Shown piece by piece: positions 250 to 19,564 of a stretch of 64,000 nt of DNA. Positions within the stretch are counted from its first letter, which is position 1. Each line of letters opens with the position of its first letter. The stretch is from a phage: the sequence record MZ956761.1; one strand, 5' to 3'. The position numbers and the translations under genes are program-made. The notes beneath the pieces were generated by a model. The model made no database searches and was not told where the DNA came from. It saw only the letters and a list, made by a program, of their open reading frames with translations.

Positions 250-663
250 ATGAAATTAGAAGATCTTCAAGAAGAATTGAAGAAAGATGTGTTTATAGAT
301 TCGACTAAATTACAGTATGAAGCAGCTAATAATGTGATGTTATATAGTAAATGGCTCAATAAGCATTCAAGTATTAAAAAGGAAATGCTTAGAATTGATG
401 CGCAGAAAAAAGTTGCTCTTAAAGCTAAATTAGACTACTACTCGGGACGAGGAGATGGTGATGAATTTAGTATGGACCGTTATGAGAAATCAGAAATGAA
501 GACAGTTCTATCAGCTGATAAGGATGTTTTAAAAGTTGATACTTCATTACAATATTGGGGAATTTTATTGGATTTCTGTAGCGGAGCTCTTGATGCTATT
601 AAATCACGCGGATTTGCTATTAAGCATATTCAAGACATGCGAGCATTTGAGGCTGGAAAATAA
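250..663 (+). CDS. uvsY: UvsY recombination mediator protein
   Basis: 137-aa ORF, same length as T4 UvsY; uvsY-uvsW-inh-hoc synteny. Confidence 0.85.
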   Translation: MKLEDLQEELKKDVFIDSTKLQYEAANNVMLYSKWLNKHSSIKKEMLRIDAQKKVALKAKLDYYSGRGDGDEFSMDRYEKSEMKTVLSADKDVLKVDTSLQYWGILLDFCSGALDAIKSRGFAIKHIQDMRAFEAGK

Positions 664-887
664 TGAAATATAGCATTGATGATGCTTTTAATTATGAAGA
701 AGAATTCGAAACGGAAATTCAATTCTTAATGAAAAAGTATAATCTCAAGCGTCAGGATATTCGTATCCTGGCCGACCACCCATGCGGTGAAGATGTACTT
801 TATGTTAAAGGAAAATTTGCTGGATATCTTGATGAATATTTTTATTCTAAAGATATGGGCATTGATATGCATATGAGAGTTATATAA
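663..887 (+). CDS. hypothetical protein (position of T4 uvsY.-1)
   Basis: 74-aa ORF; TAATG overlap with uvsY stop. Confidence 0.55.
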   Translation: MKYSIDDAFNYEEEFETEIQFLMKKYNLKRQDIRILADHPCGEDVLYVKGKFAGYLDEYFYSKDMGIDMHMRVI

Positions 888-890
888 ATA
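883..890 (+). promoter_or_regulatory. T4-type late promoter (TATAAATA)
   Basis: Exact TATAAATA about 25 bp upstream of the ATG at 916. Confidence 0.5.
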
Positions 891-915
891 GATATATAAT
901 TTAGAGGAGACAATC

Positions 916-1083
916 ATGTCAGATAAGATTTGCGTTGTCTGTAAAACTCCAATCGATTCTGCATTGGTTGTTGAAACAGACAAAGGTCCTGTACATCCTG
1001 GGCCTTGTTATAATTACATTAAAGAACTACCAGTTTCAGAAAGTTCGGAAGAACAATTAAATGAAACACAACTTTTGCTATAG
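916..1083 (+). CDS. small Cys-rich protein (position of T4 uvsY.-2)
   Basis: 55-aa ORF below the 60-aa track cutoff; GAGGAG SD; CVVC...C motif. Confidence 0.5.
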   Translation: MSDKICVVCKTPIDSALVVETDKGPVHPGPCYNYIKELPVSESSEEQLNETQLLL

Positions 1084-1106
1084 TGTGACCTTTAGTCTAT
1101 AGTTTT

Positions 1107-1135
1107 GGCCCTTCCTTTTTGGTTGGGCCTTTTTT
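1107..1135. terminator. hairpin plus T-run between convergent genes
   Basis: GGCCC/GGGCC stem followed by TTTTTT. Confidence 0.35.
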
Positions 1136-1138
1136 AAT

Positions 1139-1381
1139 TTAAAAGCTTTCTTCTACTTCATCGTCTGAATCTTCTAATTCAGCTCTTTTTCCTGCCAAAG
1201 CATCTCTCACAGAGATGTCATCAGTATCTTTTAATTCAGTTTCTTTAACTCTTTTCTTATAATAAGCTTCAAGTTCTTCTAGACCTTCTATCGTTTGACA
1301 AGAGGCAATTTTACCCATAAATTCATCAATAGAAGCTTCATAAAGAAATTGTTTAAATTCTAGTAACATCTTTTTCTCCAA
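1139..1381 (-). CDS. uvsW.1: UvsW.1 small ORF downstream of uvsW
   Basis: 80-aa ORF directly after uvsW on the same strand. Confidence 0.65.
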   Translation of the reverse strand: MEKKMLLEFKQFLYEASIDEFMGKIASCQTIEGLEELEAYYKKRVKETELKDTDDISVRDALAGKRAELEDSDDEVEESF

Positions 1382-1394
1382 AGGGCCGAAGCCC

Positions 1395-2906
1395 TTATAA
1401 ATTAACTGTTTTCATTACGTAATTAAATTTTTCATCTGCGTAGCGCTGAATACGATCAATGCCGTGTTTTAAAAGATAGTTCAAATGAACGTATTTCTTT
1501 TTCGTATTAGCAGATTTTGGCTTAACACCGCAATCATCTATGAGGTCCCAGACTGTTGCGATTGTTTTGGAACCATGCTTACGTAATACGCGACCTATTG
1601 TTTGCAATACAATAATTTTAGATTTAACACCGTGTGCTAAAACAACGTGATGCAGATTTTTAACTGAAATACCGGTAGAAAATACACCATAACTAGCTAC
1701 TATAATTATTCCTTTACCGTTTTCAGCTAAGGTTTTCATTATATTGCGGGTTTCGGTATCAACTTCCCCTGATACGTAATAAACTTTATCGTATTCATTT
1801 TTAATTAAATCGAAAATAGCTTTACCGTGCGATACGTGTTTAAACATGACAAAAGCGTTTTCATCTTTTTGTGCAAGCTTAATAGCTAATTTAGCGATCC
1901 ATTTATTTCTTTTACTGAGTCCAGTGATAATTTTTATTTCTTCTTGGTAAGTTTTTCCCTTTAATTTAGTAGTGAACTCATCGGGATAGCGAAGAAAAAT
2001 ACTATTAATTTTTAGCTCAGTTACTTGTCCATCTTCCATTAATTTAGAAGTCGTTACTGGCTTAAATATTTCGCCAAACATTCCAACATACTGCATGATA
2101 TTAGCTTTGCCATCACGTAATGAACCAGACAAACCAAATTTAAACATACAGTTATTTAAACCTGATATGATAGATGAAATACTTTTTCCTGTAGCAAGAT
2201 GACATTCATCATTCATCATCATTCCAAACTGTGAGAACCATTCTTTCGGTTGTTTTACTACAGTTTGCCATGTACCAACAACGACTGGTGCATCATTTTT
2301 ATATTTATCATCTTTTGATGCTCCGCCGCCAATTTTCTTTATCATTGCATGACTGAATAAACGATAGTCGACGAAGTCATCAGCCATCTGAGTTGTCAGA
2401 GCAGTTGTTGGAACAATGATAAGAATTTTACCTTCATAATTTTCCAAATAATACCGCGCAAGCAAAGCTTGAATTAAAGATTTACCTGCGGATGTTGGAA
2501 GATTAAGAATTCTACGACGATTAACTAATCCTTCGAACACTGCATCTTTTTGATACCAGTGTGGTTCAATTCTTTTATTTCCTGAATAGATTTCTAATTT
2601 AGAAAGCCATTCATCAAAATCTTTTCTTGATAATTCTTCTTTTTCGTTAATCTGTGGGTCAATCCAGGCTTTATAGCCAAAGTTATCACAGAACTTTTTA
2701 ATTTGCCCGACTAAGCCGAATGGAAGAAGACGATTATAATCTAAAAGACGGATTCGTCCATCCCAGTGACCATATTTGTACTTCGGATTAAAACGATACC
2801 CATCAGCTTCAAAGCTAAAGAAATCACGGAGTTCATGAAATGTACTTTCTTCACAATCAATTCTCACGTGACTAAAATCATAAAAATGTACTTTAATGTC
2901 AGTCAT
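1395..2906 (-). CDS. uvsW: UvsW SF2 helicase
   Basis: 503 aa; Walker A LPTSAGKS and DECH box (MNDECH). Confidence 0.92.
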   Translation of the reverse strand: MTDIKVHFYDFSHVRIDCEESTFHELRDFFSFEADGYRFNPKYKYGHWDGRIRLLDYNRLLPFGLVGQIKKFCDNFGYKAWIDPQINEKEELSRKDFDEWLSKLEIYSGNKRIEPHWYQKDAVFEGLVNRRRILNLPTSAGKSLIQALLARYYLENYEGKILIIVPTTALTTQMADDFVDYRLFSHAMIKKIGGGASKDDKYKNDAPVVVGTWQTVVKQPKEWFSQFGMMMNDECHLATGKSISSIISGLNNCMFKFGLSGSLRDGKANIMQYVGMFGEIFKPVTTSKLMEDGQVTELKINSIFLRYPDEFTTKLKGKTYQEEIKIITGLSKRNKWIAKLAIKLAQKDENAFVMFKHVSHGKAIFDLIKNEYDKVYYVSGEVDTETRNIMKTLAENGKGIIIVASYGVFSTGISVKNLHHVVLAHGVKSKIIVLQTIGRVLRKHGSKTIATVWDLIDDCGVKPKSANTKKKYVHLNYLLKHGIDRIQRYADEKFNYVMKTVNL

Positions 2907-2935
2907 GTCTAAATACCATGTAATAAATATATCTA

Positions 2936-2943
2936 TATTTATA
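2936..2943 (-). promoter_or_regulatory. T4-type late promoter (TATAAATA on minus strand)
   Basis: TATTTATA on plus strand about 30 bp upstream of uvsW start. Confidence 0.5.
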
Positions 2944-2956
2944 CTGAGGAAATATT

Positions 2957-3637
2957 ATGATAGATAAAGATTATATTGCAGAGCTGAAGGCTCTTGATGA
3001 TAATAAAGAAGCTAAAGCTAAATTAGCTGAATATGCTGAACAGTTTGGTATAAAGGTCAAAAAGAATAAATCTTTTGATAATATCGTTAATGATATTGAA
3101 GAAGCCCTCCAGAAGCTCGCTAGTGAACCTATGCCAGAGACTGATGGGTTATCTATTAAAGACTTAATTGATGCTGCTGATGCTGCAGACGGATTAAAAT
3201 ATGACGATGAAGAAGTCAATCCAGAGGCAGCACTTCTGATTGATTCTCCGGTTAAATCTGACATTAAAATTGAAGTAGTAGAAACGGATAAAATTCTTGA
3301 AAATACCGATGTTTTGATTGAAGATACTCCTTTTGTTGAAGAAAAATTCGAGCAGGCTGTAGCTGAGATTATTGAATCTGAAAAGCCGTCTGTATTTACT
3401 CTTCCGGAAAACTTTAGTCCGAATCTTCAGCTGATTGGAAAAAATCCAGGATTCTGCACTGTTCCTTGGTGGATTTACCAGTGGATTGCTGAAACTCCGG
3501 ATTGGAAATCTCACCCAACTAGTTTTGAACATGCGTCGGCACACCAAACTTTATTTAGCTTAATTTACTACATTAATCGTGACGGATCAGTTCTAATTCG
3601 TGAAACACGTAATTCTTCTTTCGTAACATTAAAATAA
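2957..3637 (+). CDS. inh: Inh, inhibitor of prohead protease
   Basis: 226 aa, matches T4 Inh length and position next to hoc. Confidence 0.75.
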   Translation: MIDKDYIAELKALDDNKEAKAKLAEYAEQFGIKVKKNKSFDNIVNDIEEALQKLASEPMPETDGLSIKDLIDAADAADGLKYDDEEVNPEAALLIDSPVKSDIKIEVVETDKILENTDVLIEDTPFVEEKFEQAVAEIIESEKPSVFTLPENFSPNLQLIGKNPGFCTVPWWIYQWIAETPDWKSHPTSFEHASAHQTLFSLIYYINRDGSVLIRETRNSSFVTLK

Positions 3638-3646
3638 GGATAACTT

Positions 3647-4777
3647 ATGGCTTTTACAGTTGATATAACTCCTAAAACACCTACTGGAGTTATAGATCAG
3701 ACTCAGCAGTTTACTGCTACACCCAGTGGTCAAACTGGAGATGGACCTATTACATATGCTTGGACTGTAGACGACGCTCCGCAGGAAGAAACGTCAGCAA
3801 CTTTTAGTTATGTACTAAAAGGACCTGCCGGTCAAAAGACTATTAAAGTCGTTGCAACCAATCAAGTTGCAGAATCTGAACCTGAAACAGCTGAAATTAG
3901 TACAACTATCACGGTTCAAAATAAAACACAGACAACTACCTTAGCAGTAACTCCTGATAGTCCTTCAGCTGGAGTAATTGGAACCCCAGTTCAATTTACT
4001 GCTGCCTTAGCTTCACAGCCGCCAGGTGCATCTGCTACGTATCAATGGCACGTTGACGGTTCTCCTGTAAGCGAAGCAACTGACGCTACATTCAATTACA
4101 CTCCTGACACAAGCGGAGTTAAAACAATTAAGTGTGTAGCTCAAGTAACCGCGACAGATTATGATACAAAGGAAGTTACTTCCAATGAAGTGTCACTGAC
4201 TGTTAATAAGAAGACAATGAATCCACAAGTTACATTGACTCCTCCTTCTATTAACGTTCAGCAAGATGCTTCGGCTACATTTACTGCTAATGTTACGGAT
4301 GCTCCAGAAGAAGCACAAATCGAATATTCATGGAAGAAAGATTCTTCTCCAGTAGAAGGGTCAACTAATGTATACACGGTTGATACATCATCTATTGGAA
4401 GTCAAACTATTGAAGTTACTGCAACTGTTACTGCTACTGATTATGATAGCAAAACTATCACAGCAGAAGGTCAAGTTCAGGTAACTGATAAAGTTGCTCC
4501 AGAACCAGAAGGTGAATTGCCTTATGTTCATCCTCTTCCACATCGTACTTCAGCTTATATCTGGTGCGGTTGGTGGGTTATGGATGAAATCCAAAAAATG
4601 ACCGAAGAAGGTAAAGATTGGAAAACTGAAGATCCAGATAGTAAATACTACCTGCATCGTTACACCCTTCAGAAGATGATGAAAGACTATCCAGAAGTTG
4701 ATGTTCAAGAATCACGTAATGGATACATCATTCATAAAACTGCTTTAGAAACTGGTATCATCTATACCTATCCATAA
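3647..4777 (+). CDS. hoc: Hoc outer capsid decoration protein
   Basis: 376 aa; tandem Ig-like repeats with recurring (V)TATDYD(T/S)K motif. Confidence 0.85.
   Translation: MAFTVDITPKTPTGVIDQTQQFTATPSGQTGDGPITYAWTVDDAPQEETSATFSYVLKGPAGQKTIKVVATNQVAESEPETAEISTTITVQNKTQTTTLAVTPDSPSAGVIGTPVQFTAALASQPPGASATYQWHVDGSPVSEATDATFNYTPDTSGVKTIKCVAQVTATDYDTKEVTSNEVSLTVNKKTMNPQVTLTPPSINVQQDASATFTANVTDAPEEAQIEYSWKKDSSPVEGSTNVYTVDTSSIGSQTIEVTATVTATDYDSKTITAEGQVQVTDKVAPEPEGELPYVHPLPHRTSAYIWCGWWVMDEIQKMTEEGKDWKTEDPDSKYYLHRYTLQKMMKDYPEVDVQESRNGYIIHKTALETGIIYTYP

Positions 4778-11501: not shown

Positions 11502-11502
<1 letters not shown>
11245..11502 (-). CDS. 67: gp67 prohead core protein
   Basis: 85 aa with poly-acidic D/E tail; synteny. 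Confidence 0.7.
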
Positions 11503-13154
<1,652 letters not shown>

Positions 13155-13159
13155 TCATT

Positions 13160-13651
13160 TTATTCCCAATAATCGAGAGCAAGAGTTACTTCAAATGTTT
13201 GGATTTCATTGTTTGAATCCCAATCTAATTGAAGTTCACCCACGTTAGTAGGCCACAGGCCTTTAATTTCGACTTCTTTTGTTACAGTTTTAGCGTCACG
13301 AGCATATTGGCGAACAACAGCGCTCTTTTTATATTCTGCTGGTTTTCCACCAGTAATTTCGTTCCCTTGCCCAGCAGCAATGCTTTGCCAATCAACAAAC
13401 TTCTGGCGAGCATCATGTGCCTCATCGTTCATTACTGTAACAGTCCAGTCATCGAATGTACGATCGCCTGCTACGTTAATTTTACGGTTCATGAATCCGA
13501 CTGGAATTTTTTCTACAATACCAGCTGGTAAAGCAGTGGCTTTACATTGAAACGTAAAATTTTGTCCAAGATAAGAAATTTCTACTTGGAATAAGTTAGG
13601 TCGAGCAAAATCACCAGATTCAAACGCTCGTGTTACATCATCTACAAACAT
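13160..13651 (-). CDS. 19: gp19 tail tube protein
   Basis: 163 aa; synteny. Confidence 0.9.
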   Translation of the reverse strand: MFVDDVTRAFESGDFARPNLFQVEISYLGQNFTFQCKATALPAGIVEKIPVGFMNRKINVAGDRTFDDWTVTVMNDEAHDARQKFVDWQSIAAGQGNEITGGKPAEYKKSAVVRQYARDAKTVTKEVEIKGLWPTNVGELQLDWDSNNEIQTFEVTLALDYWE

Positions 13652-13665
13652 ATTAGCCTCTGTAG

Positions 13666-13673
13666 TATTTATA
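13666..13673 (-). promoter_or_regulatory. T4-type late promoter (proximal copy) upstream of gene 19
   Basis: TATTTATA on plus strand 15 bp upstream of gene 19 start. Confidence 0.4.
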
Positions 13674-13724
13674 TCCCTATGTTTAACCTAGGGCATATAG
13701 AATTAAAGAATTAAGGATATAGTG

Positions 13725-13732
13725 TATTTATA
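13725..13732 (-). promoter_or_regulatory. T4-type late promoter (distal copy) upstream of gene 19
   Basis: Second TATTTATA about 75 bp upstream of gene 19, adjacent to a hairpin. Confidence 0.45.
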
Positions 13733-13758
13733 TGGCCTGCCGAAACAGGCCTTTAGAA

Positions 13759-14376
13759 TCATTCTAGTAAATCCCAAAGATCTACACTATTTCTTTTTGA
13801 TTTTTCTCGGTTAGATTCCCAAGTGATTATTTCTAAATTATTAATACCACCAATTATTTTAGCAGGAATTAAATTATCAAAACCGTATTTGATAGATACC
13901 TTATGATCAAGTTGGTAAGCACCTTTTGTACCGCACACTCCTATTTTATCAGCATTTGGCCATTTTGACCAAATTTTCTTATGCTTACGAGTTTCTTTAT
14001 ATACCAATGAAATATATTCACGCATTTCAGATTTATTTGGGTTCCATCTTGGATGATTTACGCCATGCATACATTCTACTGTTTTTCCTTTATTCGCGGA
14101 ACCATATGAATTATTGCGCATTTTATCTTTATGACGGCAATCACGACAAATATCAGTGTTTCTTCCAATGCGTTGGTTATATTCAATTCCACATTTATCG
14201 CAACGGCATTTTACATACGCGGTACTACCTTTAATGTCTTCAACTTTAACATCAATTTCATAATACCTAAATCCATGTTTAACCGCTCCAAGAGGTGTTA
14301 ATTTATAACCCTTTGATTGATAATGTTTAAAATTTGATGGTACAATTTTCACTTTAACAAACTTAGAAATAATCAC
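13759..14376 (-). CDS. free-standing HNH homing endonuclease with N-terminal zinc ribbon
   Basis: CRCDKCG...CRDCRH Cys4 cluster and HNH motif QLDHKVSIKYG...GGINNLEIITWESNREK; start taken as GTG with GAGGAA SD (track ORF extends to 14415). Confidence 0.6.
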   Translation of the reverse strand: MIISKFVKVKIVPSNFKHYQSKGYKLTPLGAVKHGFRYYEIDVKVEDIKGSTAYVKCRCDKCGIEYNQRIGRNTDICRDCRHKDKMRNNSYGSANKGKTVECMHGVNHPRWNPNKSEMREYISLVYKETRKHKKIWSKWPNADKIGVCGTKGAYQLDHKVSIKYGFDNLIPAKIIGGINNLEIITWESNREKSKRNSVDLWDLLE

Positions 14377-14392
14377 TTGTTTCCTCGAGAAT

Positions 14393-14408
14393 AGGGGCCG
14401 AAGCCCCA
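14393..14408 (-). terminator. hairpin directly after gene 18 stop
   Basis: GGGGC-TTCG/CGAA-GCCCC stem-loop. Confidence 0.4.
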
Positions 14409-14415
14409 TAATCAA

Positions 14416-16395
14416 TTAACCTGCAAGACCAGTTAACTCATCGAAATCTGCACCAGTAGCAGTTGCGACGAAATTCAAAGTAATATAATTTATACTGCGC
14501 GCCGGTTGGATGTAGAATGTTGCAACAAACTCATTTCTATCAATTACTGACGGAGTGTTATTTGTTGTATCGCAAACTACACGATATTCATAAATTCCAC
14601 CGAGAGCTTTAATTCCCTGCAAGTACTGGGAAGTTTCTGTGCGGAATGATGAACGAGTAAACGCGTTGTTTAATTCGAACAAACGATATTTTGAACTACG
14701 TCCAATATTCGTTTTCAACATATTAAACAGACGACGAACGTTAATACGATCAAATGGAGAAGGAACAGAAGTAGCTGTTTTATCACCATACAATACGTAA
14801 CCATCACCACCTGTACCAGTTACTGGGTTGATAGCTTCTTGGTATAAACGATCGCGCTGCGCCTGGCGAGTTTCAATAGCAAGTTTAATAACGTTCAAAA
14901 TTTGGCCACGATTATAACCAGCTGGGGACATCCAAGTCTGAGAAACGTTATCTGTTCTCGCGCATAAACCAGCAATATCAGCTGCTAATGGAACCCAACG
15001 ATTCACATCATTATATTTGTCATACTGATACTTGTAGTTACCATCAATTGCTGCGTAGGTTGAACTGATATTAAAGTTATTATCAGTGTATGAACCTGCT
15101 GCAGTTCTCCAATTGACTAAGTTATCAACAGCACGAGTTACAGGAATTCCAACTACAGTTTCACGCGGTGGTGAGCACAGTACTAAGCAATCTTGGCGAG
15201 CATCCCCAATTGAAACGACGTGTTTTTGGACAGTAGATGCTGTTTCTAAAGATTCACCGGCACAAGAACCCGCAATAAACAACTGAACATCAACAGATTC
15301 ACGGTCAGCAAAGAAGTCCCAAGCTTCCATCAAATCTCCTGCTGTCACTTCAGCATTTGATGATAAACCACCAGACAGAGTTAAAATTCCAGAGAAGCCT
15401 TCTGGCCAGTTTTGTGCAGTTGCGAAAATATATTCTGAACCACCTTTTGCGAAAAAGTCATCAATATAGATGTTACTATCGTAAATATCTTTTTCACCAC
15501 GCTTTGTTGAAAGAACAACGCTTTGAACAATAGCATCATTGCGACGAACTATAATAGCGTATTGTGAATCAGTTTGTGGTCCATATCCAAACACTGCTTT
15601 GGCAGTAGATGCGCGTGTGCCGCCGCCTGGATAAATTGGAAGTAATGCAGAAGCACCTTTTGCGTAGTCAGCTTTAGATACGATTTCAATTTCGATTTTA
15701 TCGCCCAACTCGCCTGGATAAAGAGCTACTACTCCTGGAATTCCATATTTTTCGAGATTTGCTTGAAAGTCAACAGCTGTCATGGCAGCTTCGGCATTTT
15801 CAATTTCAGCTAATAAAATACCAGAATCGGTAATAATTTTTCCAAGAGTTATTACTGCAGCTAAACCAGAGGAAGACGAAGAAATTTCCGCGGTCCAGTT
15901 AGAACCTAATTCTGGATATTCGCCTACTTCTTTCGCTTTAGCGATAATTTTTGCGGTAGGAATATTAATTTTCTTAATTTTTCCATCAGCATCTACTTCG
16001 GTAACTTTACATTCTGTTTCAACATCTTCTGAAACATACTTAACCGTGATTTTATCTCCAACCGCGTAGTTACTACCTGGGGTAGAAATAGTGTATTCAA
16101 TATTACCGGCAATCGGAGATGAGTTTTTAGCGGTATCTCTATCGACAACACGCACAACTCGCAAATCATTTCCGTATTGTAAGAAATTCATTGCAGACAT
16201 AAAATAGTCAGCAGTTTCAGCTGTAGGTTGACCAAAAGTATTAACTAAATCTACTTCATTCGTAACCTGTTTAATTTGAAAAGCAGGACCCCACTGGAAT
16301 TTACCGGCCAAAGCTGCTGTACCAGTAGAGTTATTAACCACGGTGCTTTGAACCGTAGTTTCTTTGAGCTCAATGCCCGGAGATAATAAAGTCAT
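14416..16395 (-). CDS. 18: gp18 contractile tail sheath protein
   Basis: 659 aa; synteny. Confidence 0.92.
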   Translation of the reverse strand: MTLLSPGIELKETTVQSTVVNNSTGTAALAGKFQWGPAFQIKQVTNEVDLVNTFGQPTAETADYFMSAMNFLQYGNDLRVVRVVDRDTAKNSSPIAGNIEYTISTPGSNYAVGDKITVKYVSEDVETECKVTEVDADGKIKKINIPTAKIIAKAKEVGEYPELGSNWTAEISSSSSGLAAVITLGKIITDSGILLAEIENAEAAMTAVDFQANLEKYGIPGVVALYPGELGDKIEIEIVSKADYAKGASALLPIYPGGGTRASTAKAVFGYGPQTDSQYAIIVRRNDAIVQSVVLSTKRGEKDIYDSNIYIDDFFAKGGSEYIFATAQNWPEGFSGILTLSGGLSSNAEVTAGDLMEAWDFFADRESVDVQLFIAGSCAGESLETASTVQKHVVSIGDARQDCLVLCSPPRETVVGIPVTRAVDNLVNWRTAAGSYTDNNFNISSTYAAIDGNYKYQYDKYNDVNRWVPLAADIAGLCARTDNVSQTWMSPAGYNRGQILNVIKLAIETRQAQRDRLYQEAINPVTGTGGDGYVLYGDKTATSVPSPFDRINVRRLFNMLKTNIGRSSKYRLFELNNAFTRSSFRTETSQYLQGIKALGGIYEYRVVCDTTNNTPSVIDRNEFVATFYIQPARSINYITLNFVATATGADFDELTGLAG

Positions 16396-16423: not shown

Positions 16424-19564
<3,141 letters not shown>

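Follow-up and report, generated by a model that had tools for sequence, protein, structure and literature searches.

This study concerns a 64,000-nucleotide (nt) stretch of phage DNA (sequence record MZ956761.1; hereafter the window) and, within it, an open reading frame (ORF) of the ORF19.1 family, a putative free-standing homing endonuclease gene located between the genes of the tail sheath (18) and the tail tube (19). All coordinates are window positions, and the features described are placed on the minus strand (Table 1). Approximately 1.8 kb of DNA around the ORF is 100% identical to Escherichia phage ADUt (OQ466432, Tequatrovirus), whose GenBank record labels the ORF 'homing endonuclease' and annotates it from an upstream start. 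On the minus strand the genes are arranged in the order 17 (terminase), 18 (sheath), ORF, 19 (tube) and 20 (portal). The original prediction, made from the sequence alone, had described an ORF of roughly 205 amino acids (aa) inserted into an otherwise T4-collinear module. Both parts of this description were borne out: the ORF is present and encodes 205 aa from its GTG codon, the order 17-18-19-20 is kept, and the spacer between genes 18 and 19 of T4 (116 bp) contains no ORF.

Table 1. Features of the gene 18-gene 19 region of the window
Feature	Coordinates	Strand	Description
Gene 18, tail sheath (left flank)	14416..16395	minus	PHROG tail sheath, E 3e-143
Hypervariable, almost wholly synonymous patch at the 3' end of gene 18	14467..14500	minus	52-85 nt before the end of the stop codon; here GCGCAGTATAAATTATATTACTTTGAATTTCGTC
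Inserted cassette	13759..14415	minus	657 bp; comprises a leader (hairpin, ribosome-binding site) followed by the ORF, with whose TGA it ends
Mechanically called ORF	13759..14415	minus	218 aa, from a TTG directly abutting the stop codon of gene 18
GGGGCTTCGGCCCC hairpin (GGGGC-UUCG-GCCCC)	14394..14407	minus	in the cassette leader; missing from empty sites
Shine-Dalgarno sequence GAGGAA	14381..14386	minus	four bases 5' of the GTG
ORF19.1-family gene, putative free-standing homing endonuclease	13759..14376	minus	205 aa; GTG start at 14376..14374
N-terminal domain, approx. residues 1-97	14086..14376	minus	small beta/alpha unit and four-ligand zinc finger (C59, C62, C77, C80)
C-terminal nuclease domain (predicted), approx. 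residues 105-195	13792..14064	minus	helix, beta (YQLDH), two short helices, beta (LEIIT), alpha (WESNRE)
GGCCTGTTTCGGCAGGCC hairpin (GGCCTG-UUUCGG-CAGGCC)	13734..13751	minus	native to the empty 18-19 spacer, outside the insert
Two TATAAATA late-promoter boxes upstream of gene 19	13725-13732 and 13666-13673	minus	native to the spacer
Gene 19, tail tube (right flank)	13160..13651	minus	PHROG tail tube, E 7e-63

The exact boundaries of the insert were mapped by a base-by-base comparison of the 18-19 junction, a check proposed with the original prediction, in 13 genomes with an empty site (T4, T2 and 11 others) and 10 with a filled one. The cassette begins directly after the stop codon of gene 18 and takes the place of 9 bp, TACGGTGCA, of the empty T4-type spacer. 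The junction reads GGTTAA/TACGGTGCA/TTCTAAAGG in 13 of 13 empty genomes and GGTTAA/TTGAT..ORF..TGA/TTCTAAAGG in 10 of 10 filled ones, and the sequence 3' of the cassette is TTCTAAAGGCCTG in both states. The insertion boundaries are the same in all 23 genomes, and the empty sites carry no scar. The G+C content of the cassette (32.7%) is lower than that of genes 18 and 19 (39.7%).

The comparisons indicate that the GTG at 14376, which the original prediction had preferred together with its GAGGAA Shine-Dalgarno (SD) sequence, is the correct start of the ORF, because (i) the full-length match to PHROG 5104, a phage protein family of unknown function (E 7.4e-91; residues 14-217 of the TTG-initiated ORF against positions 1-209 of the 228 in the profile), begins at residue 14, which is the GTG codon, (ii) homologues begin with MIISK at this position, and (iii) a 1-base indel in the leader of RB3, phage 132 and phiC600P9 places the upstream TTG/ATG out of frame with the ORF. 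The upstream ATG itself is also missing from phage 132 and phiC600P9, and every filled Tequatrovirus genome in the sample keeps the GAGGAA SD.

The family is large (37 clusters at 90% identity; 857 representatives at E≤0.001), and the ratio of nonsynonymous to synonymous polymorphism (pN/pS) among copies of the ORF is low (0.06-0.14), all nine sampled copies being intact. The ORF is therefore under purifying selection and is more than a chance reading frame.

Domain organization of the ORF19.1 protein

The two motifs named in the original prediction, CRCDKCG...CRDCRH and QLDHKVSIKYG...GGINNLEIITWESNREK, were both found in the protein, the first in the N-terminal and the second in the C-terminal domain. 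Of the zinc ligands, C59, C62 and C77 are invariant in the family alignment, and the fourth may be Cys or His. Weak matches to the treble-clef domain DUF4379 were obtained for 9 of 34 relatives (best E 8e-4) and for 10 of 148 representatives (best E 7e-6), the ORF protein itself having none; weak zinc-ribbon matches to the N-terminal domain were also seen. This domain most likely constitutes a DNA-binding, specificity module. In other proteins it is joined to helix-turn-helix, REase_MTES_1575 or Mom-like domains, and the C-terminal domain is found elsewhere behind DUF7487. The separate occurrence of the two domains is the modular build typical of homing endonucleases. DUF7487 is often placed N-terminal to this nuclease domain in longer relatives (P0163, P0124, P0179 and seven others). 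Together, these fusions make up a small network of shuffled phage nuclease modules.

The predicted core of the C-terminal domain is of the HNH-like ββα-metal type and comprises D157, H158, N180, N189 and K192. All 34 aligned sequences share these five residues and L181, each of which is also conserved to at least 90% among 148 diverse representatives. AlphaFold models, built for the complete protein and for residues 101-205 (predicted local distance difference test scores, pLDDT, of 84-86), contain a strand at 154-158, a second strand at 181-185 and a helix at 186-191; the conserved residues are located on the first predicted strand, just before the second, and on the helix. The protein has the conserved residues expected of an HNH domain: an Asp-His pair that closes strand 1, an Asn with a structural role, and in the helix an Asn (or His) for binding of the metal.

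Profile searches gave a different picture. In Pfam and NCBIfam no HNH profile matched the ORF protein at E≤1, which is formally the outcome that the original prediction had named as counting against its HNH assignment. Among the 34 close relatives there was one match each to HNH_4 (E 0.078) and HNH_5 (E 0.22). Among the 148 representatives, four matched HNH_4 (best E 3.5e-4) and two matched HNH (best E 2.4e-3), these counts being taken irrespective of the matched region and of the curated cut-off; a few distant relatives also matched NUMOD3. A phmmer search of the PDB and a PDB profile search with the whole family gave no nuclease match, and a Foldseek comparison with the PDB gave no match. 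The predicted zinc-finger HNH protein was thus upheld as regards its two-domain build and its conserved catalytic residues, but not as regards a curated HNH profile match for the ORF protein. The HNH assignment is upheld only by the conserved catalytic residues, a weak fold match and marginal matches in distant relatives, and on this evidence we predict that the C-terminal domain is a divergent HNH-type (ββα-metal) nuclease.

Support for a homing-type nuclease domain also comes, independently, from another locus. In the metagenomic contig L070 (IMGVR_UViG_3300046787_000388; positions 653-3657), the gene of the terminase large subunit is divided into two ORFs with intein splicing motifs. Between the two halves there is a 302-aa ORF whose C-terminus corresponds to the nuclease domain described here (hhalign probability 98.3%, E 2e-14). 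This layout is that described for 'fractured gene' endonucleases, one example of which concerns the gp17 terminase (Dassa et al. 2009, PMC2677866). Those enzymes, unlike the present one, are GIY-YIG or Vsr-like rather than HNH-like, and the ORF of the window splits no gene. The first terminase half of L070 begins with an apparent C-terminal piece of another intein (...GILSHN/T), which suggests a further split upstream.

We also considered that the protein might be a zinc-finger nucleic-acid-binding regulator with a catalytically dead HNH-like domain, modulating late genes or tail assembly. This is improbable. The residues invariant across the 148 relatives are the HNH catalytic set (D-H...N...N..K), which a dead domain would not be expected to retain, and the same domain is present in a split-intein locus typical of active homing endonucleases.

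Distribution, alleles and horizontal movement

Junction-specific queries of phage records revealed 382 empty and 117-118 filled junctions, so that approximately 24% of Tequatrovirus-level records contain the insert. It is missing from T4, T2 and approximately 76% of Tequatrovirus records, and from all sampled Mosigvirus-level records. The original prediction had specified that an equivalent ORF in T4 itself and all close relatives would contradict it; T4, T2 and most relatives are empty, as it had anticipated.

This distribution bears on the idea that the ORF encodes a packaging-associated HNH protein aiding the terminase, like the terminase-adjacent HNH proteins of HK97-like or GVE2 phages. 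Such a partner should be conserved in all relatives, whereas T4, T2 and most Tequatrovirus phages package their DNA without the ORF. In addition, gene 18 stands between the ORF and gene 17, and the gp17 of T4 carries its own nuclease and packages by the headful mechanism. We therefore regard a packaging role as highly improbable.

The same insert occurs on at least four gene 19 haplotype backgrounds, each of which is also found in empty genomes. Two alleles are present at the one site: an ADUt/RB3-type (48 records with at least 95% protein identity) and a T6-type (201 aa). The proteins share approximately 50% identity, and the flanks are 97-98% identical at the DNA level. The two alleles form a mosaic, in which the first 60 nt (the leader and first codons) are identical, nt 61-450 are approximately 45% identical, hence all but unrelated, and the last 215 nt or so are approximately 90% identical. 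Judged from these sequences, the N-terminal domain alone has been exchanged as a module, and the insertion point has stayed the same. The T6-type allele has the family, insertion point, leader, hairpin, GTG start and C-terminal 70 or so residues in common with the ADUt-type; it differs in its N-terminal part of approximately 130 residues, and neither allele has a described function. A 32-kb GenBank record, MG010123.1 ('Staphylococcus phage SAJK-IND'), is 99.5% identical to the gene 18-ORF-gene 19 region of ADUt, which is T4-type coliphage DNA, and is probably mislabelled or contaminated.

Outside this genus, members of the family in GenBank come from T4-like phages of Escherichia, Klebsiella, Acinetobacter, Serratia, Salmonella and Sinorhizobium. 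Among 25 full-length homologues from IMG/VR, 23 are accompanied by gp18 and/or gp19 within the locus; in those of the 23 whose layout was listed, the ORF lies between the two. Of the partial matches, 18 further ones are located near gp18 and/or gp19 (most of them at the 18/19 junction, and that of L070 inside the split terminase gene), and 31 matches to the C-terminal domain only are located elsewhere.

The similarity of the ORF does not track that of gp18 and gp19, as measured by percent identities. One homologue (L008) shares 47% identity with the ORF next to a gp19 of 35% identity, and three others (L017, L018 and L023) share 38-42% with the ORF next to gp19 of 71-73%. A full-length homologue (43% identity) was also found between gp19 and gp18 on the opposite strand (L011:3117-3707; IMGVR_UViG_3300009563_000455), and looks like an independent insertion in inverted orientation. 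Since the identities of the ORF are untied to those of its flanks, one copy is inverted, and a mosaic allele occupies the one site, these comparisons speak for a site-specific element that has moved horizontally more than once rather than for simple vertical descent.

Vertical descent was weighed in the form of an old accessory gene of the T4 superfamily, inherited at the 18/19 junction and repeatedly lost, whose nuclease would serve the phage by degradation of competitor or host DNA, in counter-defence or in late DNA processing. The junction position is indeed kept in very divergent T4-like phages (Acinetobacter, Klebsiella, Serratia, Sinorhizobium and metagenomic contigs), purifying selection is strong with no decayed copies in the sample, and the homologues of several distant phages either possess a late promoter of their own or overlap the stop codon of gp18, as an established member of an operon would. 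We nevertheless consider such a history unlikely. The ORF is lacking, with no scar, from the empty majority of Tequatrovirus and from the sampled Mosigvirus-level records, alleles of 50% identity are found on backgrounds that are 97-98% identical, the similarity is untied to the flanks, and one copy is inverted. No PADLOC defence model was matched, and membership of a defence system was rejected on this ground.

Homing model and the candidate target in gene 18

The features of homing genes as a class, i.e. patchy presence in close relatives with precise boundaries and a horizontal history (here read from percent identities), are found in this element. We consider, with a probability of about 65%, that the ORF is a free-standing selfish homing nuclease gene of the uncharacterised ORF19.1 family (PHROG 5104), carried by a self-contained cassette inserted after the stop codon of gene 18. 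The nuclease activity of the ORF19.1 protein, its target site and its homing are what we infer from the above observations.

The proposed mechanism is as follows. The N-terminal zinc-finger module would read the DNA sequence and the C-terminal HNH-type module would act as the nuclease. In the latter, H158 may activate water, D157 and N189 may hold the metal ion, and N180 may brace the hairpin; these roles are assigned by analogy with other HNH nucleases, in particular the HNH domain of Cas9. When a relative with an unoccupied 18/19 site infects the same cell, the enzyme would nick or cut the DNA of that relative at or near the junction, either at the empty junction sequence (a plausible target, already proposed in the original prediction), which is destroyed in the carrier by the insert, or at the 3'-end patch of gene 18. 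Recombinational repair from the carrier genome would then copy the cassette, together with a short stretch of gene 18, into the recipient.

The patch was considered in this context since it is the most diverse 36-bp window in approximately 6.2 kb compared among 22-23 genomes (nucleotide diversity, pi, 0.206 against a mean of 0.037; z 6.3). At least four haplotypes are present, and the ADUt-type differs from T4 at 11 positions, all 11 of them synonymous. A non-T4 patch was found in 10 of 10 filled and 5 of 13 empty sampled genomes (Fisher p 0.003, shared ancestry being ignored). Database-wide, a variant patch is present in approximately 113 of 117 filled records; the megablast alignments used for the junctions ran through the mismatched patch, and from their coverage only the filled and empty totals and the existence of filled genomes with a T4-type patch are readable. 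When association with the insert was scanned site by site across 3 kb to the left and right, a signal was found only 52-85 nt inside gene 18, with none on the gene 19 side, and a co-conversion gradient was not seen. The patch is a candidate for a target/immunity polymorphism or a co-conversion tract.

Two models of the target appear about equally likely. In the first, the enzyme recognises a site across the empty junction, a sequence shared without variation by the empty genomes, and the patch is a co-converted or hitch-hiking tract. In the second, the target is located in the patch, and the variants are resistant alleles. The simplest form of the latter, with the T4-type patch as the sensitive target, is weakened because at least three filled genomes have this patch type: the Shigella phages sb1 and sb3 (PQ666539, PQ666541) and the Escherichia phage Ec_YwIITB1 (PQ356294), with sb2 as a probable fourth. 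These genomes could be recent recombinants or a sign that the patch is not the target. The inserts of sb3 and Ec_YwIITB1 were confirmed to be of the ADUt-type.

Several points weigh against a homing nuclease gene. As regards the protein, the ORF product lacks a Pfam or NCBIfam HNH match, the best curated HNH scores (HNH_4, E 3.5e-4; HNH, E 2.4e-3) are confined to relatives, and the nuclease domain, when used by itself as a profile against the PDB, gave no match. As regards its history, the junction position is held even in phages whose gp18 and gp19 share no more than 35-50% identity with those of ADUt, and a position shared by divergent phages also fits an old, vertically inherited and often-lost accessory gene; moreover, T-even phages recombine heavily, and mixed flank haplotypes alone are not proof of homing. 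As regards the target, the Fisher tests ignore shared ancestry among the genomes, and three to four filled genomes have the T4-type patch. Finally, no functional study of the ORF19.1/gp19.1 family was found in the searchable literature.

An extension of the homing model, to which we give only tentative credence and somewhat less than even odds, is that ORF19.1 is a long-lived site-specific homing lineage, which has followed the sheath/tube junction across the T4 superfamily through re-invasion and swaps of zinc-finger modules, the patch being the footprint of an arms race. If so, it would represent an unrecognised HNH-like homing family with natural specificity variants directed against one conserved structural-gene target.

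Free-standing homing endonucleases influence which alleles survive in T-even co-infection, and they are also a source of sequence-specific nucleases. If active, ORF19.1 would (i) extend the T-even homing map by a site within the tail structural module, (ii) provide two natural alleles with different zinc-finger modules at one insertion point, suitable for studies of specificity change, and (iii) explain in concrete terms why gene 18 ends with a hypervariable synonymous patch.

The last 50 nt or so of gene 18 (14416-14466), between the patch and the cassette, are, unlike the patch, almost invariant at synonymous sites, whichever patch haplotype is present and whether the junction is empty or filled. 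This points to constraint on the nucleotide sequence itself, which might contain a recognition sequence or an RNA element.

Transcription signals and relation to known elements

The hairpins and late-promoter boxes listed in the original prediction exist at the coordinates it gave, and their assignment was revised. It had proposed that the GGGGCTTCGGCCCC hairpin follows gene 18, that the boxes and the second hairpin bracket the insert, and that a promoter had been duplicated at the insertion site. The first hairpin proved to be the 5' part of the inserted cassette, and the other three elements are all found on the downstream side of the insert. Both TATAAATA boxes and the GGCCTGTTTCGGCAGGCC hairpin are present base for base in the empty site of T4 and T2, and promoter duplication was rejected after the T4 spacer and 22 further genomes had been read. 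The GGCCTGTTTCGGCAGGCC hairpin, identical in T4, T2 and other empty genomes, is the native post-gene-18 hairpin, and is annotated as a rho-independent terminator in the SA20RB record; one or other of the TATAAATA boxes was annotated as a late promoter by the depositors of fPS-65 and SA20RB. Each hairpin and promoter can now be assigned in annotation either to the insert or to the native spacer, and the ORF can be given its correct GTG start.

The GGGGCTTCGGCCCC hairpin appears in both the minimum free energy and the centroid fold. It was annotated as a putative terminator by the depositors of G2133 (GenBank record), and was not called by a terminator scan, having no T-run. A role as the terminator of gene 18 was rejected, since the hairpin is absent from empty sites and belongs to the cassette, as was sequestration of the ribosome-binding site, since the SD and the GTG are not paired with the hairpin in the fold. 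It may attenuate or stabilise read-through transcripts from gene 18.

No TATAAATA box is present between the stop codon of gene 18 and the GTG of the ORF, and the nearest canonical copy upstream is the late promoter of gene 18 (16424-16431). The ORF is therefore probably expressed late and at a low level, by read-through from this promoter past the UUCG hairpin. The variant patch of gene 18 creates the sequence TATAAATT (14487-14494, minus strand), which has one mismatch to the T4 late-promoter box and is located approximately 110 nt upstream of the GTG; the T4-type patch reads CATTAACT. It could be a cassette-linked promoter or a coincidence. That it serves as the ORF's own late promoter is an idea only, as it also occurs in empty genomes, e.g. 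T2, and is not conserved in distant relatives.

The regions upstream of the homologues vary by lineage, with (i) TATAAATA directly 5' of the ORF, (ii) a hairpin with TATAAATA in its loop, or (iii) overlap with the gp18 stop codon. In two Acinetobacter-phage-like contigs (L006 and L007, the latter Acj61-like), a hairpin with a 12-bp stem and TATAAATA in the loop (GGCTCTCTATAAATA...TATAGAGAGCC) is located approximately 90 nt upstream of position 4001, and in a third contig (L044) TATAAATA is followed by a hairpin extending up to the GTG. The layout of these three is similar to the control by hairpin and late promoter that has been described for homing endonuclease genes elsewhere in T-even phages.

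Among known elements, the Mob proteins of T4 (MobA-MobE) are the closest in kind: they are encoded by free-standing spacer genes beside an essential conserved gene, are patchily distributed in T-even phages, and combine nuclease and DNA-binding modules. In contrast to ORF19.1, the HNH of the Mob proteins is well defined, and their presumed DNA-binding region is located C-terminal to it (PMC2988022). The nuclease domain of ORF19.1 is C-terminal, behind the zinc finger, and falls below every Pfam HNH threshold, a distinction made by domain layout and profile scores. The reversed domain order and the lack of a Pfam HNH match argue against membership of the Mob family. Also among the nearest known systems are HNH endonucleases of solved structure, namely the Gme HNH nicking endonuclease of Geobacter (4h9d), the HNH protein of phage GVE2 (5h0o) and the HNH domain of Cas9 (Pfam HNH_4). 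No element is placed between genes 18 and 19 in the 2010 review of T4 mobile elements (PMC2988022). Databases have contained the ORF19.1 family since the T6 ORF19.1 record, mostly under the label 'hypothetical', and it escapes standard HNH profiles. ORF19.1 is a plausible free-standing homing endonuclease, and an uncharacterised addition to a well-known kind of T-even element.

No paralogue of the ORF was found in the 64-kb window. In the neighbouring gene 20, the mechanically called ORF (11502-13154, 550 aa) begins 26 codons upstream of the annotated start of the portal protein (MKFNVLS..., 524 aa in ADUt and T4), which is only an artefact of ORF calling.

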